DNA of 64,000 nucleotides from contig CALIRD010000099.1 of NCBI GenBank assembly GCA_938042355.1, positions 6 through 64,005 on the forward strand, in the 5' to 3' direction. The position numbers were made by a program, and so were the translations under genes. Positions 26,641-60,891 of the stretch are shown piece by piece. The notes beneath the pieces were generated by a model. It was not told the origin of the DNA. It was given only the letters and a program-made list of their open reading frames with translations, and searched no databases. Source of the stretch: an uncultured Thiotrichales bacterium (lineage in GTDB: Bacteria; Pseudomonadota; Gammaproteobacteria; CAZUMV01). The first letter of the stretch is position 1; the number at the start of each line of letters is the position of its first letter.

Positions 26641-26943
26641 TCAGGATGACAGGTCATGCAAGATGCGCTGCACCAGTTGTTCACGGCGTGCGGATTGCAG
26701 CGCTTGTAGAGTTTCATCGGCTTCGAAGTTTTCTATTTTGTCGCTACCGCCGAACCCGTGTTGTTCCGAGAGTTTTTCGTAAATATCCATTCGGTCTCTT
26801 AGTACTGAAATTTCCATCGCAAGACGAAGCACAACATCGACCACCTGATCCATGTTGGAAGTTGCAATGAACGTTGGTTTGGTGCGTTTGCTGTCGAGCA
26901 TCAAGTCAGCAACACTGTTGCTCGGGCTCTTATCATTACTCAT
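26641..26943 (-). CDS. Small protein 'A' (100 aa), member of a 4-copy paralogous family in this window; function unknown
   Basis: Its ATG overlaps the stop of the methyltransferase at 26940 (ATGA). Shares the core VVDVVLRLAMEISVLRDRMDIYEKLSEQHG...IENFEADE with the ORFs at 36354, 41947 and 60535. Confidence 0.6.
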   Translation of the reverse strand: MSNDKSPSNSVADLMLDSKRTKPTFIATSNMDQVVDVVLRLAMEISVLRDRMDIYEKLSEQHGFGGSDKIENFEADETLQALQSARREQLVQRILHDLSS

Positions 26944-28067
26944 GAGTTTACTTGCGCGCCAAACAGAAAATAACTGTTGTTACCGCCAGCAGCTTGATAG
27001 TCAGTGAAGCGTTCTTGCTCATCAAAACCGGCTGTCGCCAAAGCAGCATCGATATCGGTATCGACAAAGCCAGTCCAGAACGGTTCGCCATTATTAACCA
27101 CTTGCCAGTCATTAGTTACCTGAGAAGGTATGTCTATTCGGTTCGGTTGGTAGGGAACATCTATATTGAAAAAGACACCACCAGGTGCGATCAAGCGTTT
27201 TACCTCTTGCATAATCTCCAACAGCTTTTCATCCCATGTTTCATGGAAGAGAATTTGACTGACAATGAGATCAAAGGAATTGTCTTCAAAGCCGGTGTCA
27301 GCCGCATCCAGTTGATGAAAATGCAGGCTGAGCTGACTATCCTCGGCCATCGCATGTGCGCAGCGCATAAAGGGGCCGGATAGATCAAGTCCGTGGACTT
27401 CAGCCTCAGGCCAGTACTCTTTAAGGCCGCGTGTCAGTGCGCCGATACCACAGCCTAAATCAAGAATTCGTGTGGGTTGGGTGTCAGGGAATCTCTGGGT
27501 GATCAGCTGAGCCATGGCGTGTCCGCCAAATGTATCCTTGGTTTTTCCAGAACTGAAGCCTTTGGCAGCCGTGTAGAGTTGAATGGTCCCATAATAAAGC
27601 AGGGGGGCGGTCAGTCCATTTTTCTCTGAATCAAAAAAGTAGCCACCCGGTTGACGATGTATTTCTGTGCTGCCGATCGGTTCGGGCAAAACAAGATCGG
27701 GATTCAGGGTCAAACTTCCCAGTTTTTTATCGTTGTTATCAATTGCTTTCGCTTTTTCTTCGGCATGCTCGAGAATTCTGTCTACAGTATCTCCAACCGT
27801 CTCCCATAGCAGGTCCTGTGAGGTATAAACGGCAGAACCCCAAAGCTGATAGAGATGTTCTTTTTCAAACAGACTTTTGGCTTCGTCTCGGGATGCAGGT
27901 GGTTTACCGTGTTGTTCGAGGTATTTCGGTAGTAATTTATCCTCATACAAGGCATGAATTTGTTGCTCCAGTTTGCCATTAACATATTTCTTCAAGCTGC
28001 CGACAAAGGCTTGTCTGGATGCTTCATCTTTATTCGGTTTGTATGTCTTTGTAAACGCTGTAGTCAT
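26940..28067 (-). CDS. Class-I SAM-dependent methyltransferase with long N-terminal extension (paralog MT1)
   Basis: Motif I RILDLGCGIGALT. Acidic loop HGLDLS. Post-II region HFHQLDAADTGFEDNSFDLIVSQILFHE. Motif RLIAPGG. C-terminal NGEPFW. N-terminal QPGGYF element. Confidence 0.8.
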   Translation of the reverse strand: MTTAFTKTYKPNKDEASRQAFVGSLKKYVNGKLEQQIHALYEDKLLPKYLEQHGKPPASRDEAKSLFEKEHLYQLWGSAVYTSQDLLWETVGDTVDRILEHAEEKAKAIDNNDKKLGSLTLNPDLVLPEPIGSTEIHRQPGGYFFDSEKNGLTAPLLYYGTIQLYTAAKGFSSGKTKDTFGGHAMAQLITQRFPDTQPTRILDLGCGIGALTRGLKEYWPEAEVHGLDLSGPFMRCAHAMAEDSQLSLHFHQLDAADTGFEDNSFDLIVSQILFHETWDEKLLEIMQEVKRLIAPGGVFFNIDVPYQPNRIDIPSQVTNDWQVVNNGEPFWTGFVDTDIDAALATAGFDEQERFTDYQAAGGNNSYFLFGAQVNS

Positions 28068-28072
28068 ATTGT

Positions 28073-29611
28073 TTAACTCATGCCCAGTTTAGGAATGAAA
28101 AGCGACTGTGTCGGTAACATAGTGGTTTTTTCCTCCGTAAATAATTCAATTGAGGCGTGTAAACCATCGCGACCCACGCCGGATTGTTTATAGCCACCAA
28201 ATGGCGCTCGCAGGTCCCTGGTCAGCGGTGTATTGACCCAGACGGTGCCGGCTTTGATCTCACGGCTGCATTTCATCACAGTAGGCAAGTCATTCGACCA
28301 GACATAGCTTACCAGTCCAAAGTCTGAATCGTTCGCGATAGTGATAGCTTCTTCGAGATCGCTGTACCTTTGCAGTGCTACAAATGGGCCAAATATTTCT
28401 TCCTGACAAACTCGTGAGCTATTGTCGGCCAGCACGGCAGTGGGTTCAAAATAGTAGCCGGATGAAAATCCATCAGCGGCTTTGCCGCCCACTAATATTT
28501 CTGCGCCTTCTGATTTTGCTATGTCAACATACGACAACACTTTTTCATAATGCGAGGCGAACGCGAGTGGTCCGACTTCTACATCGCTATCAAAAGGATT
28601 GCCGACTTTTACATTTGCCATACGCTGTGTAAATTTATCGATAAACTCATCGGCGATAGAGTCTTGCAGCAAGATTCTTGAGCCAGCGAGACATTGCTCG
28701 CCATTACCAGCAAGGATCGCTATCAGTGAGCCGTCAATAGCGTCATCGAGATTAGCATCTGCGGTAACAATATTGGCGGATTTTCCACCAAGCTCCATGC
28801 CCACTTTTTTCAGGGTTTTGGAGGCAGATGACATAATGGTTTTACCGGTACCGGTGCCGCCAACAAATCCAATCACGTCGACGTCAGGGTGTTCTACCAA
28901 CGATTGTCCGGTGATGTGGCCACGACCATTGACGAGGTTTACCACGCCCGGTGGAATGCCCGCATCATTAATTATCTCTACAAATCTTTGCAGGGTATAT
29001 GGCGAGTATTCAGAGGCTTTGATTACAACCGTGTTACCGGTAGCCAACGCCGCAGCCAGTTTCATTGATACCAGCACAGTTGGAGCATTCCACGGGGTTA
29101 GCAGGGCACATACGCCTACCGGTTCATGCGTCACAATGGAAAGATAATTTCTGGTTTGTGTATAGGCTTCGCCTCCCAGGGTGCCAGCAACTTCAATAAA
29201 AAATTCAAAATTCTCTACCGTTCTTGGCATGTGCATGGCTTGTAAGCCAGCGACTGGAATACCGACCTCGAATGCCTGTATGGTCGCTAATTCCTGAGCA
29301 TGCTCGCGTATGGCGTCACGGGCTTTATAAAGTATGGCTTTCCTGTCGGTGTGGGACAGATATTGCCAGTCGGTGTGATCAAATGCATGTCGTGCAGCAG
29401 CAACTGCCGCATTGACCTCGCTTTCATCACTTTCTTGAACGGTATAGGTTTCTTCTGCGTTGATTGGACAGACTGACTGAAGTTTAAATGCTGTCGTGTC
29501 ATGTCCCTGCAAACTTCCGTCGATTATTGCCGTGACGGTGTCGGGTAATTGAATCTGGTGTTGGTCGGTGAGATCTTTGACATTGGGTATCTCAAACTGA
29601 TTGTCGGTCAT
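28073..29611 (-). CDS. Aldehyde dehydrogenase (NAD(P)+)
   Basis: ELGGKSANIV and GEQCLAGSRILL catalytic motifs in a 512-aa product. Confidence 0.9.
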   Translation of the reverse strand: MTDNQFEIPNVKDLTDQHQIQLPDTVTAIIDGSLQGHDTTAFKLQSVCPINAEETYTVQESDESEVNAAVAAARHAFDHTDWQYLSHTDRKAILYKARDAIREHAQELATIQAFEVGIPVAGLQAMHMPRTVENFEFFIEVAGTLGGEAYTQTRNYLSIVTHEPVGVCALLTPWNAPTVLVSMKLAAALATGNTVVIKASEYSPYTLQRFVEIINDAGIPPGVVNLVNGRGHITGQSLVEHPDVDVIGFVGGTGTGKTIMSSASKTLKKVGMELGGKSANIVTADANLDDAIDGSLIAILAGNGEQCLAGSRILLQDSIADEFIDKFTQRMANVKVGNPFDSDVEVGPLAFASHYEKVLSYVDIAKSEGAEILVGGKAADGFSSGYYFEPTAVLADNSSRVCQEEIFGPFVALQRYSDLEEAITIANDSDFGLVSYVWSNDLPTVMKCSREIKAGTVWVNTPLTRDLRAPFGGYKQSGVGRDGLHASIELFTEEKTTMLPTQSLFIPKLGMS

Positions 29612-29622
29612 GCCGGTATCCG

Positions 29623-30816: not shown

Positions 30817-30989
30817 ATCTTGAATATCCCATTAAACTTTAGAACATCGTACCGGAGCTGACATTTGAGGTGCTGTTATATACGATTTAGGTTTCATCTG
30901 GTGAAATCTCAGTGTACTCTTGTGTTCTATGTCTTGGAGTGATTATTTTTACTGTGTAATTTATCCACTCTAAACGACGGGTTACCAAT

Positions 30990-31658
30990 ATGATGACGAA
31001 AGAAAAATTAACCGTGCGAATACATGAGCTACTGGCGGGTCATGATTTTACAACGGTGCTGCCAGAAGCTAAAAGTACTGAGTTGAAAAAGACTCTGGAT
31101 GAGCTAATTCCATTCTCGCCTGTACCTGACCCAATGGACAACCAGCATGCAGCAGAGGGTGTATGGGAGTGTAATTACGCCAACTTCGGGGTTAAGCATG
31201 CTGCTGAGCAACCGATGTTACACAGGTCAAGTCTGGCTAAACAAAGCTGGAATAATTTACCCAATATTCCGGCTGATATGATTGATATCCGGCAGGAAAT
31301 CCTCGTTAGTACCAAGGCCTACAACAATGTCGTAAAGTTACGTAGTACAACGTCTGATTGTGAAGCTGTGGTAGTGCTCTACGGGACTTATTCGGGTGAT
31401 GATGACAATCGTACTCGATACTCGGTTGCATTCTCGGAGGTTTCACTGGAGCCCATGAACGGTGACAGTGAGGCTGAGCTCCGTAGCGGCTTCGGTATTG
31501 ATGACGATGTGCCACTTCGTACCACGTTTAACCCGCCAAAACTTCATTCAGATATTGTTTATGTAGATGACAGGCTAAGAATCAACTATGGCAGTCTTGG
31601 CGGGTATTATGTCAATACCAAAATTGATGAAGCTGGATATTCGATAGACTACCAATGA
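30990..31658 (+). CDS. Hypothetical protein (222 aa)
   Basis: Clean ORF immediately upstream of the IclR gene. No recognisable motif. Confidence 0.45.
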   Translation: MMTKEKLTVRIHELLAGHDFTTVLPEAKSTELKKTLDELIPFSPVPDPMDNQHAAEGVWECNYANFGVKHAAEQPMLHRSSLAKQSWNNLPNIPADMIDIRQEILVSTKAYNNVVKLRSTTSDCEAVVVLYGTYSGDDDNRTRYSVAFSEVSLEPMNGDSEAELRSGFGIDDDVPLRTTFNPPKLHSDIVYVDDRLRINYGSLGGYYVNTKIDEAGYSIDYQ

Positions 31659-31667
31659 GGTCATCTG

Positions 31668-32489: not shown

Positions 32490-32496
32490 GGGTGGG

Positions 32497-33681: not shown

Positions 33682-33694
33682 AGTTGAATGGTTT

Positions 33695-34948: not shown

Positions 34949-35126
34949 GTCGGGCTCCTGATGAAGATGTATTGAATAATAATCCAGATTGTAGCAGTTT
35001 CAATGTTTCGTCTGGCGGTCTGTTTTGCTAATTTTTCAGAATGAATTAACCGCGGTAACTTAAGTAAATTACACTTCTTATAATGTCTAGAATTACTTAT
35101 ACAACATACTGTGGGAGAACAAACAG

Positions 35127-36329
35127 GTGCTGAACATATTCCAACAAGCCGAGCACGCTATGCTGCCAAAGATGACAGCTGCAGAACGCTCGCGACAAGA
35201 ATTCGCCAAGTCATTCAAGCAACATATACAGGCTAATTTTCTGCCGGCAGTGACGTCGGCATATTTCAAGCGTGCTGTCCCGGCTTATGCTGAAGAAAAA
35301 GGTGAGGCGCCTACTGATTACCGAGAAGCGAGAACAGCCTTTCAAGATGATCCTTTATTTCAATTTTATTTATCTTCGCAACGCGTAAGTCAGGAGTTAA
35401 TGTGGTTCGGAGTGAACGAATCGATTACCCGGCAACTGGATGAGTTGAAACAACAGGCGGAACAATTACCGGCTACCGGCGGCACACTGGAAATCGATGA
35501 TGATTTCACGGTACCTAAATATGTTTCATCTCTGGATATACACTGCATGCCTGGTGGCTATGTAGGTAAGGATGGAAGTGACCCGCTTCATGCAGGTGCG
35601 CTGTATGATCGTGGTGTCTACTTATATGCGATGGGGTATATGGGGCCTAACAATGATGATATGGGTCGCTCCGTATGTAATTACATAACCCGTAACCTCC
35701 TTGATTTCAAACCAATGAAAATTCTGGATATTGGTTGCACTGTTGGGCATTCAACCTTGCCTTATGCCGAGCTGTTTCCCAACGCAGAGGTTACTGCAAT
35801 TGATGTCGCAGGTTCTTGTGTAACCTATGCACATTACCGGGCAGAAGCGATGGGCTTACCTGTGCATTTCAAGCAGAGAAATGCCGAAGCTACCGGTTTT
35901 GAAGATGAGAGCTTTGATCTGGTTGTCTCACATATACTTCTGCATGAAACATCAAAAAAGGCGATGCCTAAAATCTTCAATGAGTGTCATCGTATATTGA
36001 AACCAGGCGGCTACATGATTCATGCCGATCTGCCACCATTCGAAAATATGGATGCCTATACACAGCTGATACTGGATAACGAAACCTGGTACAACAATGA
36101 GCCATTCTGGAGTGCAATGAGAGAAATGGATCAGATTGAATTGGCGAAAAAAGCCGGCTTTGCAGAAGAAGATATATTCTTTGATACCGCAGGTATGGCC
36201 ATCATGGAACAAGCCAGACAGGCTGAGCTGGATGTGGCTGATGCGGTTGAAGAACTCGGAGAGCGAGAGTTTACTGCTGGTGAGTATGCTCCTGGCGGAG
36301 GCTGGGAAGTACTGGTCGGTAAGAAATGA
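35127..36329 (+). CDS. Class-I SAM-dependent methyltransferase with long N-terminal extension (paralog MT2)
   Basis: KILDIGCTVGHST. TAIDVAG. HFKQRNAEATGFEDESFDLVVSHILLHE. RILKPGG. NNEPFW. N-terminal MPGGYVG. GTG start at 35127, or alternatively ATG at ~35160. Confidence 0.8.
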   Translation: MLNIFQQAEHAMLPKMTAAERSRQEFAKSFKQHIQANFLPAVTSAYFKRAVPAYAEEKGEAPTDYREARTAFQDDPLFQFYLSSQRVSQELMWFGVNESITRQLDELKQQAEQLPATGGTLEIDDDFTVPKYVSSLDIHCMPGGYVGKDGSDPLHAGALYDRGVYLYAMGYMGPNNDDMGRSVCNYITRNLLDFKPMKILDIGCTVGHSTLPYAELFPNAEVTAIDVAGSCVTYAHYRAEAMGLPVHFKQRNAEATGFEDESFDLVVSHILLHETSKKAMPKIFNECHRILKPGGYMIHADLPPFENMDAYTQLILDNETWYNNEPFWSAMREMDQIELAKKAGFAEEDIFFDTAGMAIMEQARQAELDVADAVEELGEREFTAGEYAPGGGWEVLVGKK

Positions 36330-36353
36330 AAGCAGCGCAACTAGAGAATTAAT

Positions 36354-36695
36354 ATGCGAACGGAAAATATAATCAAGGGCAAGCGTCCTGAAATGTTTGA
36401 TTCACCTGGTGTTGATTACCTGATTCACATGGTGATGGTACTCACACAGGAGCTAAGTGTGGCGAATGACCAGATGGACACTTTAAAGCGTCTACTGATT
36501 GAAAAAGAGGTCTTGAATGCCGATGAGTTGGAGCGCTATAGCCCTGATCAGACTACACTGGAAGAACGAGAAACTCGACGCCAAAGCATGCTGGACACTT
36601 TGTTTTCTGTGATTTACCAGGAGGCTGCTGAAATAGAGCGTAAAGACAGTAAGCAAAAATTTCACCAAACTATCAAAGATATCGCCAGTGAGTAA
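36354..36695 (+). CDS. Small protein 'B' (113 aa), paralog of A, C and D; function unknown
   Basis: Core YLIHMVMVLTQELSVANDQMDTLKRLLIEKEVLNADELERYSPD. Lies 24 nt downstream of MT2 and 34 nt upstream of the monooxygenase. Confidence 0.6.
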   Translation: MRTENIIKGKRPEMFDSPGVDYLIHMVMVLTQELSVANDQMDTLKRLLIEKEVLNADELERYSPDQTTLEERETRRQSMLDTLFSVIYQEAAEIERKDSKQKFHQTIKDIASE

Positions 36696-36729
36696 ATCCG
36701 GTGTCGTAACTGATATTGGGATTGACTGA

Positions 36730-39555: not shown

Positions 39556-40902
39556 ATGGAGAAAGTCTCACAAAAAATCCGACTGAGCTGGGGCAGTGGT
39601 GCCTTGGGCGTGGCCATCTTAATGAATGTGATCGCCTTCGTGGTGGTCTTTTTTATGGTTCAAGTTCTTGGCTTAAATCCAGCACTTGCGGGAGCCTTGG
39701 TGTTTATCTCCAAAGTGGTCGATATTATTACTGACCCTATAGTTGGGCGTTGGAGTGATCAATACAAAACGAGTGGGAGTAGACGGCGACCGTTTATGTT
39801 GTACGGCGCTTTTATATCTGCAATATCTTTTGCGATGATTTTTACTACTCCAGAATTTGGTAATCAATGGATTACCGCTAGTTACATGCTGTTAGCGCTG
39901 ATCATATACACATTGGGTTATACACTTTTTAATCTGACCTACTTGTGTATGCCAGCAGAAATGACAGACGACTATCATGAGAGAACGGAGATTCATGGCT
40001 ATCGTATGTACTTTGTTGCTGTTGGTGGTTTGTTAGCTCAAGCAGGTGTACCTCCATTACAACAATGGTTAGGTGCAGATAAGGCCGAGACGTACGTGGT
40101 TATTGGGGTGGTCGGTGGTGTAGTTATCCTCGCTTCAATGCTGAGTGCGTATTACGGCACTGCTAAAGCCAAATTCACTACTGCAGCGATAGAGAAAACT
40201 GACTTTATCAAGGAATATTCTCACGTCCTTAAAAACCGGCATTTTCTAAGGGTGTTAGGTATCAAGGCATCGCAACTTTTTGGTGTTGCGGCGATTTCAG
40301 TCTCTACTTTGTTTTTCTTTAAAGATTTACTGCAGGCGAGTTTGAATATACTGGCGTTTGTGGGTGTTGTGTCATTTCTATTTACCGTCGCGAGTGTTCC
40401 TTTATTGGTTAGACTCTCCAAAAGAATTGGTAAGGCGCAAACCTATGCAGTAGCAGGATCATTATACGTATGCTCGGCATTGAGCTGGGTGTTTGCACAG
40501 GCTGGTGAGCCTACCTGGGCAATACTCATCCGGTACGCCGTAACCGGTATCTCTGTTAGTGGCAACATTGTTATGGCAATGTCGATGCTGACTGATTGTA
40601 TAGAATATGATGCTCGCAAGTCAGGCATTAGACGTGAAGGGGCATACACAGCCTTGTATACGTTTACTGAAAAATTCACTTTTGCACTAGGACCATTGGT
40701 GTTTGGTGTTGCACTGTCAATGGCGGGGTACAGTGGTGATTTGGCGCCAGAAATGACACAAACACCGGAAATACGTCAGGCGTTATTATTGGGTATGTCT
40801 TATATCCCGGCAGCAATGGGCGCTTTAGCAATCTATTTATTGCTAGGCTATAAACTAACGAAGGAAGAATTGGACAAAGCAGGAGATAGTCTTGAAGAAT
40901 AA
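39556..40902 (+). CDS. MFS/GPH-family (MelB-like) cation symporter
   Basis: 12 TM helices with the GPH-type motif DIITDPIVGRWSDQYKTSGSRRRPFMLYGA. Confidence 0.85.
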   Translation: MEKVSQKIRLSWGSGALGVAILMNVIAFVVVFFMVQVLGLNPALAGALVFISKVVDIITDPIVGRWSDQYKTSGSRRRPFMLYGAFISAISFAMIFTTPEFGNQWITASYMLLALIIYTLGYTLFNLTYLCMPAEMTDDYHERTEIHGYRMYFVAVGGLLAQAGVPPLQQWLGADKAETYVVIGVVGGVVILASMLSAYYGTAKAKFTTAAIEKTDFIKEYSHVLKNRHFLRVLGIKASQLFGVAAISVSTLFFFKDLLQASLNILAFVGVVSFLFTVASVPLLVRLSKRIGKAQTYAVAGSLYVCSALSWVFAQAGEPTWAILIRYAVTGISVSGNIVMAMSMLTDCIEYDARKSGIRREGAYTALYTFTEKFTFALGPLVFGVALSMAGYSGDLAPEMTQTPEIRQALLLGMSYIPAAMGALAIYLLLGYKLTKEELDKAGDSLEE

Positions 40903-41950
40903 AATACCAGCAGCTAACTTGAATCAACGAGGGCGTGCTTCATTTGATTTTTTAGGTCACATGTTTCATGGCACCCACAAAATTCGTACGGCTGCCAGCG
41001 AGTATGTTGAAAACGAATTTGGTGATGGCAGTGAATTGCCGGAGGACCTGGATCAGCGTGTAAAAACCGTCTCTGAATTTGCGTATCAATTACCTGCTGC
41101 CAGGATCCGTCGTACAGTCGGTGAGTGGCATGCCAGTAACCACGGTCAAATAGCGATAGAAGCTTTTGAGGAGCTCGGAGAGGATTTTGCCAAGGATCTT
41201 CATCAGTATGACGAGGGCAGCAGCAGCCTGACGCTGGATGATGATTATGATGTGCCTGCCTATTGGGACGGTGTTGAGTTTCATCGAACCAGTGGCGGTT
41301 GGGACGGACATCAATACATGGGCTTTATTCACGGTGAGCTCGTGCATAAAAAAATGGTAGATGTCATTTACCCGGGCGGCATTTTCAAACAGCGCTGTGA
41401 GGTCGCCAAGCTGGCGCCGCAGAATGAGTATGAAAAAATTCTAGAGATGGGTACCTCGACTGGTCATTTCACCCTGGGTTTGGCATTGGCCTATCCTGAG
41501 GCAAAAATCACCGGCGTTGATCTTTCAAGACGGGCGCTGGAGCATACGCTGCGAGTTGGTAACGCTAATGACTATGCCTGGGATCTCTACCGCAGACCGG
41601 CCGAAGCGACTGGGTTTGATGACAGCAGCTTTGATCTTGTGGCGTCTTATATTTTATTACATGAGTTGCCCGTGCAATCCATTAAAGACGTATTTAGTGA
41701 AGCCTACAGAGTACTCAAGCCAGGTGGAGATATGCTCATGAGTGATGTGGTTCGTTATGCAGAGATGAACAAACTGCAGGTGTCTCTTGCGGATGAAGAT
41801 GCCAGCTATGGTGGTGAGCCATTCTGGCGTGAGTCTGCCAGTGCAGATCTGGCGGCGATCGCCGAAGAAGTTGGTTTTACTGATGTCAAAATCACAAACC
41901 TGGGCACAGGTCCTTATCCGCACGTTGTTCTTGGAACCAAGCCATCATGA
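40892..41950 (+). CDS. Class-I SAM-dependent methyltransferase with N-terminal extension (paralog MT3)
   Basis: KILEMGTSTGHFT. TGVDLS. AEATGFDDSSFDLVASYILLHE. RVLKPGG. GGEPFW. N-terminal SGGWDG. The TTG start lies 6 nt after an AGGAG RBS and overlaps the stop of the upstream transporter. Confidence 0.75.
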   Translation: MKNKIPAANLNQRGRASFDFLGHMFHGTHKIRTAASEYVENEFGDGSELPEDLDQRVKTVSEFAYQLPAARIRRTVGEWHASNHGQIAIEAFEELGEDFAKDLHQYDEGSSSLTLDDDYDVPAYWDGVEFHRTSGGWDGHQYMGFIHGELVHKKMVDVIYPGGIFKQRCEVAKLAPQNEYEKILEMGTSTGHFTLGLALAYPEAKITGVDLSRRALEHTLRVGNANDYAWDLYRRPAEATGFDDSSFDLVASYILLHELPVQSIKDVFSEAYRVLKPGGDMLMSDVVRYAEMNKLQVSLADEDASYGGEPFWRESASADLAAIAEEVGFTDVKITNLGTGPYPHVVLGTKPS

Positions 41951-42225
41951 GTTCTGACCCAAAAAGCTTTAACAATCCGGGTACACCGACGCTGAACGCC
42001 CAGGACAGCGCAGGTCTAGGGCAGGCAGTGCTGACGCTAACCCACGAATTATGGATCGTGATCGATCGTGTACATGCTCTAGAGGCCGTGCTGAAAAAGC
42101 ACGGTATGAATGTCAGTGAAGAAATCGAAAATTATATGCCGAGTGATGCCGATAAAGCACAGCTTGATGAGCGTGGTAAACAGTTGGTAGAAAGAGTGAC
42201 CGAAGCCTTAGCCCACAGTAGTTAA
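41947..42225 (+). CDS. Small protein 'C' (92 aa), paralog of A, B and D; function unknown
   Basis: Its ATG overlaps the MT3 stop (ATGA at 41947-41950). Core AVLTLTHELWIVIDRVHALEAVLKKHGMNVSEEIENYMPSD. Confidence 0.6.
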   Translation: MSSDPKSFNNPGTPTLNAQDSAGLGQAVLTLTHELWIVIDRVHALEAVLKKHGMNVSEEIENYMPSDADKAQLDERGKQLVERVTEALAHSS

Positions 42226-45344: not shown

Positions 45345-45531
45345 GATTCGCCGTTATTCTTTGTTTTCAACTTTGTAACGCTATTATCGTATGCTCTTGA
45401 GTTGATTGACAGTATCCTTGATGGGGCGCAGCTCGCGACTTCAGAGTATTTCATTAGTCGGAATGATACGGGTAATCTACAGGTTACTGAATCTGTCCGG
45501 AAGTAGAATAAATCAACAATCGGAGGAAATT

Positions 45532-47034
45532 ATGTCACAGCAACTCGTACAAGCCGCAGGTGTAAAAACATTCCTTGAAACCAGGGCTAGAAAATTACTG
45601 ATTAACAATGAATGGGTAGATGCCTCTGACGCAGCTATGATTGACAGTGTTGATCCGGCTACTGGCGAAACGCTGGCGTCAATTGCCGAAGCTAATAAGG
45701 ACGATGTAGACAGAGCAGTAAGTGCAGCCAGAGTGGCGTTTGAGTCAAATGAGTGGCACAACATGACGGGATCGACACGTGCTAAGTTAATGTGGCGCAT
45801 GGCTGACCTAATGGAAGAGCACATCGACGAGCTGGCCGAGCTTGAGACTCTGGATCAGGGCAAGCCTCTTTATGTTGGACGTTGGGCTGAAATTCCCGGT
45901 GCTATAGAACAGTTCAGATATTTTGGCGGACAATGCACCCGTCTTGAAGGGACCACCATACCAACCTCGATAGACTATCAGCCCGAAGGAAAACGAATTT
46001 TCGCCTATACGGTAAAAGAACCAGTAGGCGTGGTCGCAGCGATCGTGCCCTGGAACTCTCCTTTGATCATGGCAGCAATGAAACTGGCGCCGATTTTGGC
46101 AGCCGGTTGTACCGTTATATTAAAACCTGCTGAGGATACTTCTTTAACCGCAATTCGACTGGGCGAGTTACTCATCGAAGCCGGTTTCCCACCAGGTGTT
46201 ATCAACATACTGACTGGTCGGGGAGAAGTTACTGGTCAGGCACTGGTAGAACATCCCGGTGTGGATAAAATTGCTTTCACTGGTTCGACAGAGATAGGTA
46301 AAAAGATTGTTGCTGATGCGCGTCATAATCTGAAACGAGTCACTCTGGAGCTAGGTGGCAAGTCACCGGTTATCATCATGCCTGACGCCGATCTGGAAGC
46401 GGCCATACCAGGCGCGGCCAATGCGATATTTTTTAATGGTGGGCAAGTTTGTGTTGCTGGTTCTCGTATTTATGCACACAGTTCTGTTTTTGAGCAAGTG
46501 GTTGAGGGTGTTAGTGCAGCAGCAAACTCGATGCAGCTGGGTCATGGTCTGGATCCTGAAACGCACTGTGGCCCATTGGTAAGTGCCAAACACAGTGGTC
46601 GTGTTGCGAACTATATTGACGGTGGAATAGCGGCGGGTGCTGAAGTGCGCGCCGGTGGCTCAAGAGAAGATGCCTCCAGCAATTTTATTCAGCCGACAGT
46701 GATGACTAATGTAACTCCGGATATGGCGGTGGTACGTGAAGAGATTTTTGGGCCGGTAGTTGTGTGTGATGCCTTTGATGATGTCGAAGAAGTATTAAGC
46801 AAGGCACACGATACAACGTACGGTTTAGCTTCCAGTGTGTGGACGTCGGATCACGGTACGGCTCACACCATGGCGAGTGATCTTCGTGCTGGAACGGTCT
46901 GGATAAATTGTCACTCTATGTACGATGCGACTCTGCCTATTGGTGGCATAAAAGAATCTGGCTGGGGTAGAGAAAGTGGTCAGCAGGCAGTAGATAACTA
47001 CATGGAGCTTAAGACAGTTTGCTCGGTTGTCTAG
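45532..47034 (+). CDS. Aldehyde dehydrogenase
   Basis: ATG preceded by a GGAGG RBS. ELGGKSPVIIM and GGQVCVAGSRIY. The track's upstream extension from 45406 is unlikely to be translated. Confidence 0.9.
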   Translation: MSQQLVQAAGVKTFLETRARKLLINNEWVDASDAAMIDSVDPATGETLASIAEANKDDVDRAVSAARVAFESNEWHNMTGSTRAKLMWRMADLMEEHIDELAELETLDQGKPLYVGRWAEIPGAIEQFRYFGGQCTRLEGTTIPTSIDYQPEGKRIFAYTVKEPVGVVAAIVPWNSPLIMAAMKLAPILAAGCTVILKPAEDTSLTAIRLGELLIEAGFPPGVINILTGRGEVTGQALVEHPGVDKIAFTGSTEIGKKIVADARHNLKRVTLELGGKSPVIIMPDADLEAAIPGAANAIFFNGGQVCVAGSRIYAHSSVFEQVVEGVSAAANSMQLGHGLDPETHCGPLVSAKHSGRVANYIDGGIAAGAEVRAGGSREDASSNFIQPTVMTNVTPDMAVVREEIFGPVVVCDAFDDVEEVLSKAHDTTYGLASSVWTSDHGTAHTMASDLRAGTVWINCHSMYDATLPIGGIKESGWGRESGQQAVDNYMELKTVCSVV

Positions 47035-47078
47035 CAACAGCGTATTTGTAGTAACGATTGCCTTTAGTTAAAACGCAC

Positions 47079-50248: not shown

Positions 50249-50260
50249 TCTGATTACAGA

Positions 50261-52134: not shown

Positions 52135-52147
52135 GTAAACCCGGGCG

Positions 52148-54091
52148 TCAAGGTCTTACAATTTCAAACCAGAAATCAAAGTCATCCAATAACCCAAAAA
52201 ATGATTGTAATGCATTAACATTACCACTCACATCCAGTAAGTTTTCTTGAGCCAGCTGGGCAATTGTTTTACTCCCAAGGTTTAATTGATCCAGTGCAGT
52301 ACGTGACATACTCAAGCTGGCAGTTGGGTTGTTATCTTGAGTATTGAGTCTGTGGTGTAGAGTGCCATTGCTAACAATCAATAGCGCAGTTTCGCCGGTG
52401 TCGGTTAGTTTGAAGTTAAAACGCCAGTCATTAGTGGCAGCTTTTGGACCGTTTAGACGAACGGCCAGTGTATCGAAGTATAAGTCGAGTGGGATGGCTC
52501 TAACCATATCAGCGCTTGATGTTCTCGGAGTCGGTAGATCGAGTACACCTCTGCGTAGTTCGGCAGCCCCACTCAAATAGAAGTTTCTCCATGATCCCGA
52601 TTCGGCTCTGAAGCCTAATTGCTCATAGGTATCTGCGAGTAAATTACTGGCGGCTGAATTTTCAGGTTGGGCAAACACTAAATGATTAAGCGCTGTCGCT
52701 ACAAACCGGTATTCGCCATTAACATAATCCTGCCTGGCTTTTTTCAGGATTGCTGCGCTGCCACCCATATAATCTACGTATTTTCGTGCTGCTGCCACAG
52801 GCTCCAATGGATCAAGGTTGGCTGGGTTGCCATCAAAATAACCGTAGTAAAGTTGGTATTGTGCTTTAGAGTTGTGACTGACAGTGCCGTAGTAATCGCG
52901 GTTGGCAAATGATCCAGCTATGGCATCCGGTAATTCAAGTCTTTCCGGGATTTCATGCATAGTATAACCATGGTTCGATAATCGCAGCGTTTGATCATGA
53001 ATGTAACGATATAAATCACGCTGACCTGTCCAGAACGATATGATTTTATCGTTGCCCCATGTAGGCCAGTGATGTGAACCAAAAGACACTTCTGTTCGTG
53101 ACCCAAAGCGGGTAATTACTTGATCAATATATTGACTCCAACGTCGACCATCACGAACTTTGGCGCCCCGCGGGGTATACATGTTATGCAGAGTGCGATT
53201 GATAATTTCTGCCTGGCAAAATGCCTTGAATTCGGGCAAAAAGAACATGAATTCAGTCGGCGCCTCTGCGCCCAAAGCCAACAAAAATTCGAAAGTGATA
53301 CCATCGATAATCATCGAGGTTGTGCTCTCTGTAATTTCTCTGGTTGGCCGTATCAGACCGGGTGTGCCACTGGAAATAGCCTGGCCCAATCCGACACCTA
53401 CTTGTCCTTGTGGGGATTTGGGTAATAACGAACCAAACATATAACTCGCGCGCCGCCCCATTTGATTGCCAGCGAGTATGTTTTCGCTAATGGTTTCACG
53501 AGTAAAACCGACAGGAGCAATCACTTCAGTTCCTGATGACAGGTCTTGCTCTGAAATTATTCCACGAACACCACCGTAGTGATCCAGATGCGAGTGTGTA
53601 AATAATACTGCGCTGATTTTACGCTTACCTAGTTCTTGCTCAACCAGACTCAGTGCAGTCGCGGCAGTTTCTTTAGTGATTAACGGGTCTATAACTATCC
53701 AGCCAGTATTGCCTTCAATAAAAGTGATGTTGGAAAGATCAAAACCCCGCACCTGATAAATTCCATCCATGACTTTATACAGACCATGTTTGGCGGCGAG
53801 TTGACTTTGTCGCCACAAACTTGGGTTTACTGATGCAGGTCGCTCGCCTTGCAGAAAGTCATAAGCACCAAAATCGTAAACAACCTGACCATTGTCACTG
53901 GTGACCGTGGTGTTTTCCAGGGTGGCGATAAAGCCACGCTCCGCCTGTTCATAATCATCACGATTACTGAAATCCAGTGTCTGTGAAATGTAGGAGGATT
54001 TTTCCGGGGCAAGTAGAGATCTTTCAATACTATTTGAAGCACACGCGCTCAATGACAACACGCACACACCTATGACAAGCAAATTCTTCAT
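52148..54091 (-). CDS. MBL-fold alkyl/aryl-sulfatase (SdsA1-type) lipoprotein with C-terminal SCP2-like domain
   Basis: THSHLDHYGG metal motif. Start set at the internal ATG giving MKNLLVIGVCVLSLSACASNS (lipobox). The track's upstream extension to 54244 is rejected. Confidence 0.85.
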   Translation of the reverse strand: MKNLLVIGVCVLSLSACASNSIERSLLAPEKSSYISQTLDFSNRDDYEQAERGFIATLENTTVTSDNGQVVYDFGAYDFLQGERPASVNPSLWRQSQLAAKHGLYKVMDGIYQVRGFDLSNITFIEGNTGWIVIDPLITKETAATALSLVEQELGKRKISAVLFTHSHLDHYGGVRGIISEQDLSSGTEVIAPVGFTRETISENILAGNQMGRRASYMFGSLLPKSPQGQVGVGLGQAISSGTPGLIRPTREITESTTSMIIDGITFEFLLALGAEAPTEFMFFLPEFKAFCQAEIINRTLHNMYTPRGAKVRDGRRWSQYIDQVITRFGSRTEVSFGSHHWPTWGNDKIISFWTGQRDLYRYIHDQTLRLSNHGYTMHEIPERLELPDAIAGSFANRDYYGTVSHNSKAQYQLYYGYFDGNPANLDPLEPVAAARKYVDYMGGSAAILKKARQDYVNGEYRFVATALNHLVFAQPENSAASNLLADTYEQLGFRAESGSWRNFYLSGAAELRRGVLDLPTPRTSSADMVRAIPLDLYFDTLAVRLNGPKAATNDWRFNFKLTDTGETALLIVSNGTLHHRLNTQDNNPTASLSMSRTALDQLNLGSKTIAQLAQENLLDVSGNVNALQSFFGLLDDFDFWFEIVRP

Positions 54092-54185
54092 TTTACATAC
54101 TCGATGTTCGTTGATTATAGTGAAACGATACAGGATGGCTCCGACAAGATCGAGAATCCTGATGACGAAATCCAGCAATGAATAT

Positions 54186-55616
54186 TTAGCGCAACAACAG
54201 AATAACTGCAGCCAGAAGTAGCAGTGGTAGCCATACAAAGACACGATCAGTGTTTGTTTTTTGTCTCAAAATACGAGAATAGGCAAGCTGGTGGTTTTGT
54301 ACCAGCAAGAATGCAGGTTTGTTGATAAACCAGGGTAAAAGTTTATGTAAAGTATGCTGCAACAAGAAGCGTATCACCCACATTTTCATGCGCCAAGGTG
54401 ACTGATTATACTGATAGGGAAACACTGTCTGCACCAGTTTTACGAGTGCTTCGGATTCGACGAGACGGTGCTGTTCATACCGTTTAAAGTCATCGGAAAT
54501 GTCAGCTTGATCTGTCATATAGGTTTCCAGTTCGTATAAATCTTCCAATGCTGAATTCACACCCAGGCCAAGATCAGGAGGAAAGGCATGAGCTGCATCT
54601 CCAATCAACAGACAATGGGTAGGAGTTTCTTCTCTGCCTACACGTGCGTATAAAGATAGAGCATGTTGTGGTGATGGAAACTTACCGGCGGTCAAACTGA
54701 CAAAATCAGACGCTTCTTCTTTTGATATCAGATTCGGTATATCCAGTTGCGGAAAAGCCTCTGTGAGATAGGTAATTAAATCGTCTGCTTCTTTGAGTGT
54801 CCACAAATGGTGATCCGCTTCCCGGATTATGTTGACGCTTCTGGGATGCTCTGCATTTGCAACGGGAAAGCCAAACAATGCCATTGCTTTGGTTCTGTCT
54901 TTATGAATTGAGGGAAATACATAAGCCATGCGATGGTCATTCACCTCTGACTGCTGTCCTTTGATAGAAAAATTCGGGGGCAGATTCAATACCTTGTAAA
55001 AAAGCTTGGCACTCGGTGATTCATACTTCTTCATCTCAAAATGACTGTCAGGCATTGCTGGCCAATCAGAAAGTAATTTTCGTGTAGTGGAGGTTAATCC
55101 ATCGCAGGCCAGCAATATATCCGGTGAGAATTGAAGTTCTGTGTCTTGAGAGTCAGTAATGGTTACGAGTGCTTTTCCATTTTCTGCTTCTGTAATGCTG
55201 GAGAGGGAATGGTCATAGAGCAGCTTGATGCTGTCATCAGTTCGTCTCTGCACCGCCTGATACAACATGGTTTGTAAATTTCGTCGTGTTGTCCAGTAAC
55301 AGGTGACTCTGTCTTTGTCGATAATCGGTGAATCAATAGTTTTGCTGCTTCCATCGGGGAGTATGGTGGTAGCGTGAAATGATTTGTTGGCAACGCCGAA
55401 TGATTCAAGGTCTTTCATCAGACCCAGTCGCTTCAGCAGCTTTTGACCGCGTCCATCGATCTGATAGGTAAATGCTTTGTTTTTTTCAAAATCTTTTGCT
55501 GAACTTCTGCGCTCGACTACCGTGATATTCTGGTAACCAAGGTCAGCAAAAAGTAAGGCAGCGGCAAGCCCGCTTGGACCGGCCCCAATGATTAATACTT
55601 TGTCGGCAATATTCAT
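54186..55616 (-). CDS. FAD-dependent monooxygenase, kynurenine-3-monooxygenase-like, with C-terminal membrane anchor
   Basis: VLIIGAGPSGLAAALLFADLG and LIGDAAHAFPPDLGLGVNSALEDL. Hydrophobic C-terminus LPLLLLAAVILLL. Confidence 0.8.
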   Translation of the reverse strand: MNIADKVLIIGAGPSGLAAALLFADLGYQNITVVERRSSAKDFEKNKAFTYQIDGRGQKLLKRLGLMKDLESFGVANKSFHATTILPDGSSKTIDSPIIDKDRVTCYWTTRRNLQTMLYQAVQRRTDDSIKLLYDHSLSSITEAENGKALVTITDSQDTELQFSPDILLACDGLTSTTRKLLSDWPAMPDSHFEMKKYESPSAKLFYKVLNLPPNFSIKGQQSEVNDHRMAYVFPSIHKDRTKAMALFGFPVANAEHPRSVNIIREADHHLWTLKEADDLITYLTEAFPQLDIPNLISKEEASDFVSLTAGKFPSPQHALSLYARVGREETPTHCLLIGDAAHAFPPDLGLGVNSALEDLYELETYMTDQADISDDFKRYEQHRLVESEALVKLVQTVFPYQYNQSPWRMKMWVIRFLLQHTLHKLLPWFINKPAFLLVQNHQLAYSRILRQKTNTDRVFVWLPLLLLAAVILLLR

Positions 55617-55625
55617 TGACTGTGT

Positions 55626-56795: not shown

Positions 56796-56797
56796 AT

Positions 56798-58393: not shown

Positions 58394-58396
58394 CGA

Positions 58397-59446
58397 TCAG
58401 GCAGGTTTTACAGCGGTGGTCAGTGACAGGAATGTCGGTGTCGGTGCCTGTTCAATCTCGTCAAAGCCTGCTGCTTTTATCAGTCCGGGAAAATCTGATT
58501 CTACAAAAGCTGGAGCATAAGGTTCGCAGTTGTATTGAGCGTCAAATTTTTGCCACATGCGATTGGCGGCTGGCAAGCTCGTACCCAGTGGAGCATCAAC
58601 GATGGTCAAGGTGCCGCCGGGGCGCAATACTCGCATCGCTTCTTCGAGAATGGGTGCGAAGGTATGCTCCGGTGTTTCGTGAAACAGTATGTAGGCGAAG
58701 ACGGCGTCGAAACTGCTGTCTTCTTGCGGCAGGTTCTCAGCCAGTGCCTGTTGAAAATGCACTTCTGACTGTTGTTCATTGGCGCGATAGTTTGCATAAC
58801 GTAACAAGGGAAGAGCTACATCAACACCCCAGATGTCAGCCTCTGGATAGGCGTCTTTGAACGCCGTGGTGCACTGTCCAATCGAGCAACCTAGATCGAG
58901 TATGCGCGTTACTTTGCCGTCAGCAGGTTGCCTGAGCATATCTACATAAAGCTTGTGTAGCTCATCGTTATCGTTCATGCCCTGATAAAAGACGCGGGTA
59001 CCGTGCTCAAATATGAAACCTGCCAGGTCATCTTTACAATAGCCACCCGGTTGCAAGTGTATGTCATAACAGGCGGAATCAGGAACATGAAAATCTTTAT
59101 CGTAATGCAGTCGTCCGGTCGCGGCTTCTGCCTGGTCGAGCATAGCTAGATGCTTTTCCTGATCGGCATGATAGCTGTCTCGCAGCTTGTTCCAGGTGAG
59201 CGCTTGTTGTGAACGCATCATTCTTTTCCATGAGCCGATGCGTGGTATGTCATCAACCATGTCGCTTATTTCCAGGTAATCTGAATCAGCCTTTCCTGAA
59301 GCTTCGACGGTGGTGTTGATTTTTTCTGCCAGTTCAGGAAACCAGTCTACAATGACAAAATTTCGCACCGACATCAGGTAGTCAAGGTAACTTTGATCTT
59401 CCGTTGTTGCTGGCTTGGTGACGCTTTCAAGACCATTTGCTGACAT
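58397..59446 (-). CDS. Class-I SAM-dependent methyltransferase with N-terminal extension (paralog MT4)
   Basis: RILDLGCSIGQCT. WGVDVA. QEDSSFDAVFAYILFHE. RVLRPGG. CEPY. N-terminal QPGGYC. Its stop is 3 nt from the oxidase ATG. Confidence 0.8.
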   Translation of the reverse strand: MSANGLESVTKPATTEDQSYLDYLMSVRNFVIVDWFPELAEKINTTVEASGKADSDYLEISDMVDDIPRIGSWKRMMRSQQALTWNKLRDSYHADQEKHLAMLDQAEAATGRLHYDKDFHVPDSACYDIHLQPGGYCKDDLAGFIFEHGTRVFYQGMNDNDELHKLYVDMLRQPADGKVTRILDLGCSIGQCTTAFKDAYPEADIWGVDVALPLLRYANYRANEQQSEVHFQQALAENLPQEDSSFDAVFAYILFHETPEHTFAPILEEAMRVLRPGGTLTIVDAPLGTSLPAANRMWQKFDAQYNCEPYAPAFVESDFPGLIKAAGFDEIEQAPTPTFLSLTTAVKPA

Positions 59447-59626
59447 ACGAAGTACTCCTGAATATTATTGACGCAATTGCTTAACAAAAAGATTACCCTA
59501 AAATTCGTAAGACGACCAATGTGTACATGGTATGCTGCTATTCACAGATTGTATGGAGTCTGCTGCGCGTAAAGCTAGGATTCCTGCTTAATCTTTCGAA
59601 CAAAACAATACCAAACGAGCAATGCG

Positions 59627-60538
59627 ATGAATTTGCGACAATTAGAGCATTTTGTAGCTGTTTTTGAACAAAAAAACCTGTCTAAAGCAGCCGAGGCCAT
59701 CCCGTTGAGCCAGCCGGCGCTTACCCGCAGTGTGCGAACGCTGGAAGATCAGGTTGGTGTTGAGCTATTCCTGCGTCATGCCCGGGGTGCAACACCTACA
59801 GCCGCTGGCGAACGCTTGTATCATCATGCGAAATCCATTCTTGCAGAATGTGCCCGCGCCAAGCGGGATGCACGACAATCGGACGGTGAAATTGCCGGCA
59901 CCGTAGCAATCGGCATAGGATCATTGTTTGCTTCTCACATCATAGACAATATGATTACGCGCTTTTGCGAGAAGCACCCAAACGCACGCTTGCGTGTCCA
60001 TCAGGGTTTCTTCGAAGATCTGGTTAACTTACTTGAAACAGGTGAGATCGAAGTCGCTTTCAATAATTTGCCGCTGTTGTCCTTACCTGAAAATATGGAA
60101 TTTGAACCGTTACTGCAGGTGCATTCAAGTGTCATCGTTTCTGCTATGCATCCCTTGGCTAACTCCGAAGATGTTGATATCAAGGAGCTCAGTCATGCAA
60201 AGTGGGCGACGGTTTCACAGCCACACGCACTGGAAGTGCTTGACTCATTGTTTATCTCTGAGGGTGTTGCTGCTCCGCAGCCGGCTATTCGAACCAACTC
60301 ACTGACATTAATTAAATCTCTGGTGATGTCTTCTGACTTTGTCTGTTTGTTACCGGATCATTTGTTCTCGGAAGAATTATTGGCAGGAGATGTGGTAAGG
60401 CTACCAACGTCGTCTACACCAGTAACCCGTAGTGCCGGCTTGCTGTTCAAGAAAGACGGCTTCAGACGACCTGTGGCGAACGCCCTGGGTGCCGAGATTC
60501 AGGAAGTTGTTAGTCAACTCAGCGATGTATTAAATTAA
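59627..60538 (+). CDS. LysR-family transcriptional regulator, divergent from the MT4 operon
   Basis: MNLRQLEHFVAVFEQKNLSKAAEAIPLSQPALTRSVRTLE (LysR HTH) plus a substrate-binding domain. Confidence 0.85.
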   Translation: MNLRQLEHFVAVFEQKNLSKAAEAIPLSQPALTRSVRTLEDQVGVELFLRHARGATPTAAGERLYHHAKSILAECARAKRDARQSDGEIAGTVAIGIGSLFASHIIDNMITRFCEKHPNARLRVHQGFFEDLVNLLETGEIEVAFNNLPLLSLPENMEFEPLLQVHSSVIVSAMHPLANSEDVDIKELSHAKWATVSQPHALEVLDSLFISEGVAAPQPAIRTNSLTLIKSLVMSSDFVCLLPDHLFSEELLAGDVVRLPTSSTPVTRSAGLLFKKDGFRRPVANALGAEIQEVVSQLSDVLN

Positions 60539-60873
60539 CTGTTGTCCGGGTTAAATGGCTTGCTTTTAAGGGGTTCAAAAATACGTTTCACATAAGATTC
60601 CAAAGCGGCATCGCGCGTTGCTTTAGCTTCCTCGTCCAACTCAATGTTTTTAAGATCGTCGCTGCTAATCAGATTCTTTTCTTGTAGTAGAGCTTCCAGA
60701 CGGTAGCGATGATCCCGTTCGGTCCACAGTTCAGCACCCAGCGTAACAATGGTTTCCATGAGCTGGTCAATAACGGGGTTGTCCAGAAAGCTTGGCTCGG
60801 AACCTTCAGGAGGTAACTTGATGGACGCTACCTGTTGCTCGGTTAACTCATCGTGTTGCTTAATGTCCGTCAT
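60535..60873 (-). CDS. Small protein 'D' (112 aa from ATG), paralog of A, B and C; function unknown
   Basis: Core LMETIVTLGAELWTERDHRYRLEALLQEKNLISSDDLKNIELDE. ATG at 60873 preferred (the track starts one codon earlier at a GTG). Lies 18 nt downstream of the PhyH gene. Confidence 0.6.
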   Translation of the reverse strand: MTDIKQHDELTEQQVASIKLPPEGSEPSFLDNPVIDQLMETIVTLGAELWTERDHRYRLEALLQEKNLISSDDLKNIELDEEAKATRDAALESYVKRIFEPLKSKPFNPDNS

Positions 60874-60891
60874 CACACTTACTCTTGATTA

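Follow-up and report, generated by a model that had tools for sequence, protein, structure and literature searches.

Four genes encoding small proteins of related sequence lie within the 64,000-nucleotide stretch of an uncultured Thiotrichales genome that was analysed here (the window). S1 (26641..26943, minus strand; 100 amino acids) is the fourth gene of a six-gene operon, S2 (36354..36695) and S3 (41947..42225) are both on the plus strand and encode 113 and 92 residues, and S4 (60535..60876, minus strand; 112/113 residues) is located downstream of a PhyH dioxygenase gene, its start being a GTG at 60876 according to the ORF lister, with an ATG present at 60873. From their translations, all four appear to be small helical proteins. 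The coordinates and translations given by an initial sequence-only reading of the window were correct on re-check, and a family HMM searched against the six-frame translation of the window found exactly these four genes (S1, 111 bits; S2, 145 bits; S4, 101 bits). The same reading had aligned the four by eye as paralogues, which BLASTP bears out at 31-46 bits and 25-32% identity over 63-90 residues, except that no S2/S4 alignment is reported even at E<=100. Each of the four has conserved orthologues of its own. Values of dN/dS are 0.09 for S1 (against its L130 orthologue) and 0.06 for S2, as compared with 0.05 for the adjacent methyltransferase MT1 and 0.03 for an aldehyde dehydrogenase; this clear purifying selection, computed for S1 and S2, speaks against the suggestion that the genes might not be translated. 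S1-S4 are real, translated genes under purifying selection.

S1, S2 and S3 each directly follow a gene for a class I SAM-dependent methyltransferase (MT): MT1 (26940..28067, minus strand; 375 amino acids), MT2 (35127..36329, plus strand; 400 amino acids) and MT3 (40892..41950, plus strand; 352 amino acids), respectively. The ATGA overlaps previously noticed are present at MT1/S1 and MT3/S3, S2 starts 24 nt past the MT2 stop, and the 4-bp MT/S overlap is found again at three related loci (L001, L002 and L127). These overlaps point to translational coupling of S to its MT. The small genes had also been described as the distal genes of their operons, which is wrong for S1, S2 and S3. All three are internal: S1 is followed by an alpha/beta hydrolase gene that starts 17 nt downstream, S2 by a FAD monooxygenase gene after 34 nt, and S3 by an alpha/beta hydrolase gene after 4 nt, and no terminator-like site was found after any of the three. 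Only S4 ends a transcription unit.

S4 is also the one member without an adjacent MT on its 5' side, where it follows the PhyH dioxygenase. A fourth methyltransferase gene that had not been connected to S4 in the earlier reading, MT4 (58397..59446, minus strand; 349 amino acids), lies 1.1 kb from S4 behind an inserted gene for a LysR-type regulator (59627..60538, plus strand; Pfam HTH_1 and LysR_substrate) that separates the two. This regulator gene is missing at the corresponding position in L001, a locus from a distant genome in which the order PhyH-S-MT-FAD_binding_4-FAD_binding_3 is kept. There, a 105-residue protein encoded between PhyH and MT is 43% identical to S4, and the MT encoded directly downstream of this S4-type gene is 56% identical to MT4. 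Because of this synteny we infer that MT4 is the cognate of S4. L001 also encodes an MT that is 57% identical to MT3 and likewise precedes an S3-type gene, the 96-residue product of which is 63% identical to S3.

The window operons that surround these pairs encode FAD phenol-type monooxygenases, a VAO-type flavoprotein, aldehyde dehydrogenases, alpha/beta hydrolases, the PhyH dioxygenase and transporters. They look like catabolic operons, and on this content the methyl acceptor is probably a hydroxylated aromatic or carboxylate intermediate.

The small-protein family and its predicted fold

The sequence-only reading described a four-copy family, which is an understatement: an exhaustive profile search recovered at least 1,524 cluster representatives at E<=1e-3 (574 at E<=1e-10), distributed across Alpha- and Gammaproteobacteria and Nostocales, and the family is therefore not private to the window. 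Members are 80-240 residues long, mostly about 85-125, and consist of a helical hairpin preceded by a disordered N-terminus, in which a G-x-R-P-x-x-F-x-D-P-x-x-D motif is often present. S2 is the window member nearest the family consensus (KGKRPxMFxSPxVDxL...ELSV). Across an alignment of 31 sequences, L41, E44 and D50 (S1 numbering) do not vary. Because related loci were gathered with a degenerate DNA pattern, the sampled proteins are biased toward the ELSVxxDRxDTxER motif; a second homologue search was dominated by Lys/Ala-rich tails. Histone-H1-like tails rich in Lys, Ala and Pro are common in the family and can be at the N- or the C-terminus.

As the earlier reading anticipated, no Pfam-like family can be assigned. 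No Pfam or NCBIfam model scores above threshold for the window proteins, a Pfam search at E<=1 with the four window proteins together with 10 diverse and 31 aligned relatives yielded no family above threshold, sequence searches of the PDB with the window proteins and diverse relatives gave no significant match, and profile searches do not place the proteins in any well-characterised family. The S family is undescribed and uncurated. The N-terminal helix of nitrile hydratase alpha matched at chance level only (E = 0.13). A carrier role, which had been proposed among other possibilities, is unsupported: a prosthetic group would have no invariant Ser, Cys or Lys to attach to, and PP-binding domains gave no match. 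The Ser of ELSV, the candidate site in an acyl or peptidyl carrier protein, is replaced by Trp in S3 and S4 and retained by only 77% of relatives. We likewise rejected a RiPP precursor of the NHLP or borosin type (no NCBIfam precursor model; conservation extends through both helices) and a split-off piece of the MT (hhalign probability 1.4%). The S alignments show neither a conserved Cys or His nor a cofactor site.

The low-complexity N-terminus and succeeding helix that had been read from the sequence agree with an AF2 model of S1, in which residues 1-24 are disordered and helices span 31-61 and 77-99, at moderate confidence (pLDDT 67.6). The prediction for S is thus a helical hairpin. The best match, a weak one, is to the interlocked-dimer fold of HP0242/DUF2018. 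In the Pfam scan S3 scores 17.6 bits against DUF2018 (PF09442; E = 0.008), below the gathering cut-off of 25 bits, and S1, S2 and S4 have no DUF2018 hit; sub-threshold matches occur in 12 of 31 family members (best E = 1e-4), and profile searches of PDB sequences with two family alignments did not recover HP0242. HP0242 from Helicobacter pylori (PDB 2BO3, 2OUF, 3MLI) is an all-helical hairpin of about 90 residues, close to the size and the predicted fold of S. It forms an intertwined homodimer (PMC5159899, PMC2954204), and its function is not assigned either (PMC3397514). The N-terminal G-x-R-P-x-x-F-x-D-P motif is apparently specific to the S family and not shared with HP0242.

The methyltransferase clade

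All four window MTs score 66-80 bits against Methyltransf_25/11 (cut-off 27), and MT1 scores 475 bits against an HMM of the MT clade. In the AF2 model of MT2 (pLDDT 92.9), two long N-terminal helices (17-57 and 75-112) precede a Rossmann fold, and the Gly-rich motif I (ILDxGC/T..G) is conserved among the MTs. The clade is marked by an N-terminal domain of about 180 residues with two 40-residue helices, and by DIHxxPGGY, LxHE and NNEPFW motifs. Foldseek places small-molecule N- and O-methyltransferases nearest to MT2 (E = 1e-11 to 1e-9), matching only the Rossmann part (about 230-280 columns, TMq <= 0.44); phosphoethanolamine N-methyltransferases, RebM/AtmM, MitM, TleD and LahSB are the best matches by structure and by Rossmann sequence. 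Unlike the Rossmann part, the N-terminal domain and DIHxxPGGY loop have no solved relative by sequence. No NCBIfam equivalog matches the MTs at cut-off, the best models (BioC, CpaM, ArsM-like) being far below threshold, and the more than 770 relatives in the clade are all annotated simply as class I SAM-dependent methyltransferase. With its motif I, Rossmann fold, confident model and solved small-molecule neighbours, the MT looks catalytically complete. To our knowledge none of these structural neighbours has a small partner protein.

One of them, LahSB, methylates a peptide carboxylate, which raises the question of whether S is itself the methyl acceptor, modified at a near-invariant Glu, Asp or Arg of the helix-1 sequence E-L-S-V-x-R-D-R-x-D-T-L-E-R. 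The strict pairing of the two proteins and the near-invariance of these charged residues would be consistent with such a role. However, most of the closest MT structures belong to enzymes that act on small molecules, and the operons that hold the pairs also encode transporters and catabolic enzymes. Conservation extends over the entire hairpin and not a single site, and motif positions 47 and 49 differ among the window copies (D-Q in S2, D-H in S4). We therefore regard S as very unlikely to be the substrate.

Pairing of the small protein and methyltransferase across genomes

The tie to methyltransferases proposed from the window is strong in comparative genomics, and co-occurrence is conserved in relatives. 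Among 73 S genes with >=1.6 kb on both flanks, a clade MT is adjacent on the same strand in 61 (upstream of S in 52 and downstream in 9) and lies within 500 bp on either strand in 62. MT-S is the commonest architecture (71 clusters), and MT-centred look-ups found an S-family gene directly downstream in 4 of 4 cases. Identity matrices of S and MT across 102 adjacent pairs are correlated (r = 0.70), a value reached in none of 500 permutations, and the window subtypes follow suit, S3 and MT3 both pairing with L001 while S2 and MT2 both pair with L067. Genetically, the S family is tied to a single MT clade, and S subtypes track MT subtypes. Since S is almost always found beside this one kind of MT, each pair is probably a two-protein methylation unit in a degradation pathway. 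Pairs often occur in several copies per genome, in clusters resembling those for catabolism of dissolved organic compounds. A literature search on an MT/small-protein module or methyl-ester-based catabolism found nothing relevant, and the MT-S pair is an uncharacterised module.

Several observations count against S as a partner of the MT. Roughly 15% of S genes lack an MT within 500 bp, and S genes are outnumbered by MT genes in several tandem MT arrays (MM, MMM, MMS). A survey of about 120 loci turned up no natural MT-S fusion, although fusions are often seen for obligate partners. Inter-protein covariation is weak and, at an Neff of 55, underpowered: 21 of the 50 top MI-APC pairs involve MT columns 41-120, where about 12 would be expected, and column variability confounds this figure.

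The lone S genes, which include some alphaproteobacterial members with Lys/Ala-rich tails, are what might be expected if S regulated the MT or its operon, either as an antitoxin-like inhibitor that holds the enzyme until substrate appears or as a nucleic-acid-binding factor. Small helical dimers are frequently inhibitors or regulators, and the basic H1-like tails of some members suggest nucleic-acid binding. We nevertheless consider regulation quite unlikely, given that S lies within catabolic operons, translationally coupled after the MT, and that dedicated regulators (LysR, IclR) have genes of their own; that no convincing DNA-binding or antitoxin family was found, the best being RHH_9 and HHA hits in single members at E of about 0.01; and that four paralogue-specific copies fit poorly with a general regulator.

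The neighbours of the pairs bear on another role, that of a scaffold or localisation factor tethering the MT, and perhaps oxidoreductases, into a metabolon or to the membrane, the nucleoid or another polyanionic surface. The precedent is UbiK (YqiC/BMFP) and UbiJ, which serve as accessory factors to the hydroxylase/methylase metabolon of ubiquinone biosynthesis. UbiK is a non-catalytic coiled coil of about 90-100 residues that acts together with FAD_binding_3 hydroxylases and class I MTs, the same enzyme types that flank S in the window. FAD_binding_3 hydroxylases recur beside MT-S pairs both in the window and elsewhere, resembling the Ubi set. H1-like tails occur on MT-adjacent members also, the hairpin helices of S1 look amphipathic from sequence, and the fold resembles that of an obligate dimer. 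Yet the MT is the sole constant neighbour of S, other neighbours varying widely (hydantoinase, CoA-transferase, MmgE/PrpD and others), the pair stands on its own in cyanobacteria, and S1-S4 are without basic tails. Moreover, ubiK is not known to show the translational coupling to an MT gene that S does, and S operons carry catabolism-type transporters and regulators, unlike quinone biosynthesis. UbiK/BMFP was absent from the Pfam hits at E<=1 of the S proteins scanned (the 4 window, 10 diverse and 31 aligned sequences). A scaffold thus appears rather unlikely.

A proposed two-component methyltransferase

The leading explanation, to which we give about even odds, is that S serves the adjacent class I SAM-dependent MT as a dedicated partner without catalytic activity of its own. 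Under this proposal, S would bind its own MT paralogue, its hairpin plausibly packing against the long N-terminal hairpin of the enzyme, and binding would stabilise or activate the MT or complete its substrate cap. If S acts in any of these ways, each MT-S pair would function as a two-component small-molecule methyltransferase. Trm112, the small activating partner of the methyltransferases Trm9, Trm11, Bud23 and Mtq2, follows a similar logic, in that a class I MT depends on a small non-catalytic protein for stability or activity and one partner family serves several MT paralogues. The likeness does not extend to structure or substrate: Trm112 has a zinc-knuckle alpha/beta fold and adds to the beta-sheet of the MT, and its partners methylate tRNA, rRNA and proteins, whereas S is all-helical without conserved Cys and its MT would act on catabolic small molecules. 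S itself as a Trm112-type activator was rejected, as no Trm112 Pfam hit at E <= 1 and no conserved Cys cluster was found.

More tentatively, and with somewhat less than even chances, we suggest that MT-S pairs are widespread two-component small-molecule methyltransferases in which an HP0242-like interlocked dimer is an obligate, paralogue-specific subunit seated on the MT N-terminal hairpin, where it sets activity or substrate choice. We know of no methyltransferase link for HP0242. The proposal offers a testable function for an HP0242-like fold, which until now has been mainly a folding curiosity.

If the MT needs S, expressing the MT by itself in a foreign host would fail or give misleading results, and annotation pipelines should therefore call the pair together; a model of the S family would also mark this MT clade specifically in genomes. 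Should the two-component reading be true, it would provide the first function for an HP0242-like fold and would establish a methylation step shared by many bacterial routes for degrading aromatic or carboxylic compounds, in marine, soil and cyanobacterial genomes.

The four small genes and their family

The sequence-only reading placed four related short ORFs in the window, and all four, S1 (26641-26943, minus strand), S2 (36354-36695, plus), S3 (41947-42225, plus) and S4 (60535-60873/60876, minus), were recovered there with the translations it quoted. Their mutual likeness holds in pairwise BLASTP (31-46 bits, 25-32% identity over 63-90 residues), with no S2/S4 alignment reported even at E <= 100. 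Exactly these four are matched by the family HMM in the six-frame translation of the window, and tblastn found no fifth copy there. The supposed four-copy family itself is far larger: a word-indexed search gave only 45 relatives, and an exhaustive profile search gave 1,524 cluster representatives (E <= 1e-3), or 574 under the stricter limit of E <= 1e-10, mostly of 80-160 aa. The consensus runs K-G-x-R-P-x-x-F-x-D-P-x-x-D-x-L, then ...L..E-L-S-V-x-R-D-R-x-D-T-L-E-R-L-L, then ...I-E-x-Y-x-P-D, then ...R..RR; the window copies are divergent members, S2 the nearest to it. In a 31-sequence alignment L41, E44 and D50 are invariant and P23 nearly so (S1 numbering). Each of S1-S4 has a separate orthologue group in other assemblies. 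Comparison with the orthologous contig L130 gave dN/dS values of 0.09 (S1) and 0.06 (S2), beside 0.05 and 0.03 for the neighbouring methyltransferase MT1 and aldehyde dehydrogenase (ALDH); dS is near saturation, and purifying selection on S1 and S2 is nonetheless clear. These small ORFs are genes.

Neither S1-S4 nor ten diverse relatives have an above-threshold Pfam or NCBIfam model, and profile searches of PDB sequences returned nothing significant for the family. S3 and 11 other relatives do show sub-threshold matches to Pfam DUF2018, the HP0242 family (best E = 1e-4), to which the weak best fold match of the S structure model also points. Two independent weak signals thus hint at the same HP0242-type fold, and a remote relationship is possible, which we do not count as membership. 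The HP0242 protein forms an all-helical homodimer with intertwined chains (PMC5159899, PMC2954204); its function is unknown (PMC3397514).

Many members carry long Lys/Ala/Pro-rich, histone-H1-like tails on the N- or the C-terminal side of the core (P0148, P0096, P0126, P0084, P0195-P0232 and the S genes of loci L056 and L114). The tails are weak PF07382 matches and occur on methyltransferase-adjacent copies too; none of S1-S4 has one. A likeness between the S3-type segment D-R-x-x-A-L-E-x-v-L-e-k-h-G-l-x-v-s-e-e-I-E and the N-terminal helix of nitrile hydratase alpha (ARVKALESMLIEQGILTTSMIDR; profile columns 39-62 against PDB 4ob1_A residues 18-41, E = 0.13) is probably due to chance.

Gene order in the window

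Each small gene had been read as the distal gene of its operon, which is wrong for S1, S2 and S3: the next gene lies 17, 34 and 4 nt downstream, respectively, and no terminator-like site was present 3' of any of the three. S1 is gene 4 of 6, in the order FAD monooxygenase, ALDH, MT1 (26940-28067, minus), S1, alpha/beta hydrolase, Amdase-like protein. S2 is flanked by the methyltransferase MT2 (35127-36329, plus) and a 3-hydroxybenzoate-6-monooxygenase-like gene, and S3 by MT3 (40892-41950, plus) and an alpha/beta hydrolase, with an MFS_2 transporter upstream. The proposed ATGA start/stop overlaps are present at MT1/S1 and MT3/S3; S2 starts 24 nt past the MT2 stop.

For S4, the sequence-only reading missed the link to MT4 (58397-59446, minus). 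S4 starts ~15 nt past the stop of the PhyH dioxygenase gene that precedes it; LysR (59627-60538, plus) and S4 (60535-60876, minus) converge with a 4-nt overlap of their ends. A distant gammaproteobacterial contig of 2.9 Mb (L001) has the order PhyH, a 105-aa S, methyltransferase, FAD_binding_4, FAD_binding_3 (68, 43, 56, 52 and 57% identity to the window, respectively), and the S4-MT4 region repeats it apart from LysR between S4 and MT4. Because L001 has no LysR at the corresponding position, LysR appears to have entered an ancestral PhyH-S-MT operon, and this synteny means that the window holds four methyltransferase-S (MT-S) modules.

Association with one methyltransferase clade

We sampled the link of S to METHYLTRANSFERASE (MT) in 120 genome loci retrieved with a degenerate DNA pattern that encodes the core motif, with titles including Rhodospirillaceae, Steroidobacteraceae, Luminiphilus, Caulobacterales, Sphingomonadales, Nostoc and Pseudomonas. 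For 73 S genes the flanking DNA reached 1.6 kb or more on both sides. An adjacent, same-strand MT of the clade was present for 61 of them (52 upstream, 9 downstream), and for 62 a clade MT lay no more than 500 bp away, whatever its strand, which bears out the proposed tie to methyltransferases. Clusters are MT-S (71), S-MT-S (10), MT-S-S (5), S-MT-MT-S (5) and a few others, with 11 internal lone S genes and 7 internal lone MT genes. MT-centred look-ups found an HMM-confirmed S gene directly downstream in 4/4 (Cylindrospermum and three uncultured genomes). No ORF fusing the two was found in about 120 loci, and S shows no homology to MT. S and MT co-evolve: their identity matrices correlate at r = 0.70 over 102 adjacent pairs (0/500 permutations as high), partly through shared species history, and paralogues pair concordantly, S3 and MT3 both with L001, S2 and MT2 both with locus L067.

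In Rhodospirillaceae two different S genes often stand in tandem (MT-S-S or S-S), and S-MT-S and S-MT-MT-S also occur (L049 236-926, L063 257-904, L071, L073 982-1639, L077 2577-3247, L108 2258-2919 and L124 4126-4938); such arrangements could encode heterodimers if the S fold is an HP0242-like obligate dimer. Some Rhodospirillaceae loci (L063, L071, L108, L119) hold three or four paralogous clade MTs within 8 kb and fewer S genes, so either some MTs need no S of their own or one S serves several.

Together with their relatives, the four window MTs make up a separate clade (350-408 residues) with more than 770 matches, all named generically at source ('SAM-dependent methyltransferase' or 'UbiE'), and no NCBIfam equivalog comes near its cut-off. 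A conserved N-terminal domain of ~180 residues and the motifs DIHxxPGGY, LxHE and (N)EPFW (invariant) mark it. AF2 modelled MT2 with high confidence (pLDDT 92.9, pTM 0.93) and placed two very long helices, 17-57 and 75-112, before a Rossmann fold; Foldseek matches (phosphoethanolamine N-MTs, MitM, RebM/AtmM, LahSB, TleD) cover the Rossmann part only (TMq <= 0.44), and matches to PDB chains in sequence likewise begin at ~residue 160.

Putative role and catabolic setting

MT is the sole constant neighbour of S. Other neighbours, named from representative sequences and matching window genes, vary and include hydantoinase A/B, family III CoA-transferase, FAD monooxygenase, MmgE/PrpD, alpha/beta hydrolase, TonB receptors, isochorismatase-like proteins, PEP-mutase/ICL-family proteins, luciferase-like monooxygenase, VAO-type flavoprotein and acyl-CoA dehydrogenase. 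The window is a catabolic island, with three ALDHs, five FAD_binding_3 enzymes, a VAO-type flavoprotein, an alkyl sulfatase, two beta-lactamase-family proteins, transporters, and LysR and IclR regulators. ALDH genes recur a few kb from MT-S pairs, here (28073-29611, 45406-47034, 61957-63519) and in an alphaproteobacterial, a cyanobacterial and another uncultured genome (L003, L126, L127); the methylation may thus be tied to a step on an aldehyde or an acid. An SdsA1-type alkyl sulfatase (52148-54244, minus; metallo-beta-lactamase, alkyl-sulfatase dimerisation and C-terminal domains) is the last gene of the MT4 string, behind two FAD_binding_3 genes, so the substrate of that operon may be a sulfated compound. 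A 222-aa ORF (30990-31658, plus) that has no Pfam match adjoins an IclR regulator and is conserved at the corresponding place in the orthologous contig (L130 5285-5953).

With roughly even confidence, we favour S as a paralogue-specific, non-catalytic MT partner, each pair serving a degradative pathway as a small-molecule methyltransferase of two components. The analysis established co-localisation, coupling, co-evolution, selection and the predicted folds; from these we infer that S would bind its own MT paralogue, putatively at the N-terminal hairpin, and affect its activity; covariation, with 21 of the 50 top inter-protein pairs in MT columns 41-120 against ~12 expected (Neff 55), is a weak hint of that site. 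A scaffold or localisation factor seems unlikely, and a regulator or inhibitor somewhat more so. That S is the methyl-acceptor substrate of MT is improbable, and the suggested carrier role is unlikely, since S lacks an invariant Ser, Cys or Lys.

Trm112-MT pairs and the accessory factors UbiK/UbiJ follow a logic like that of the favoured MT-S partnership, but the defining features of Trm112 and of UbiK/UbiJ, tested in S, were not found there. The family and its tie to the MT clade appear to be undescribed within the libraries and literature searched. Enzymes with small accessory partners are an already known type of arrangement and no new principle is demonstrated, yet the MT-S module is widespread and relevant to annotation.
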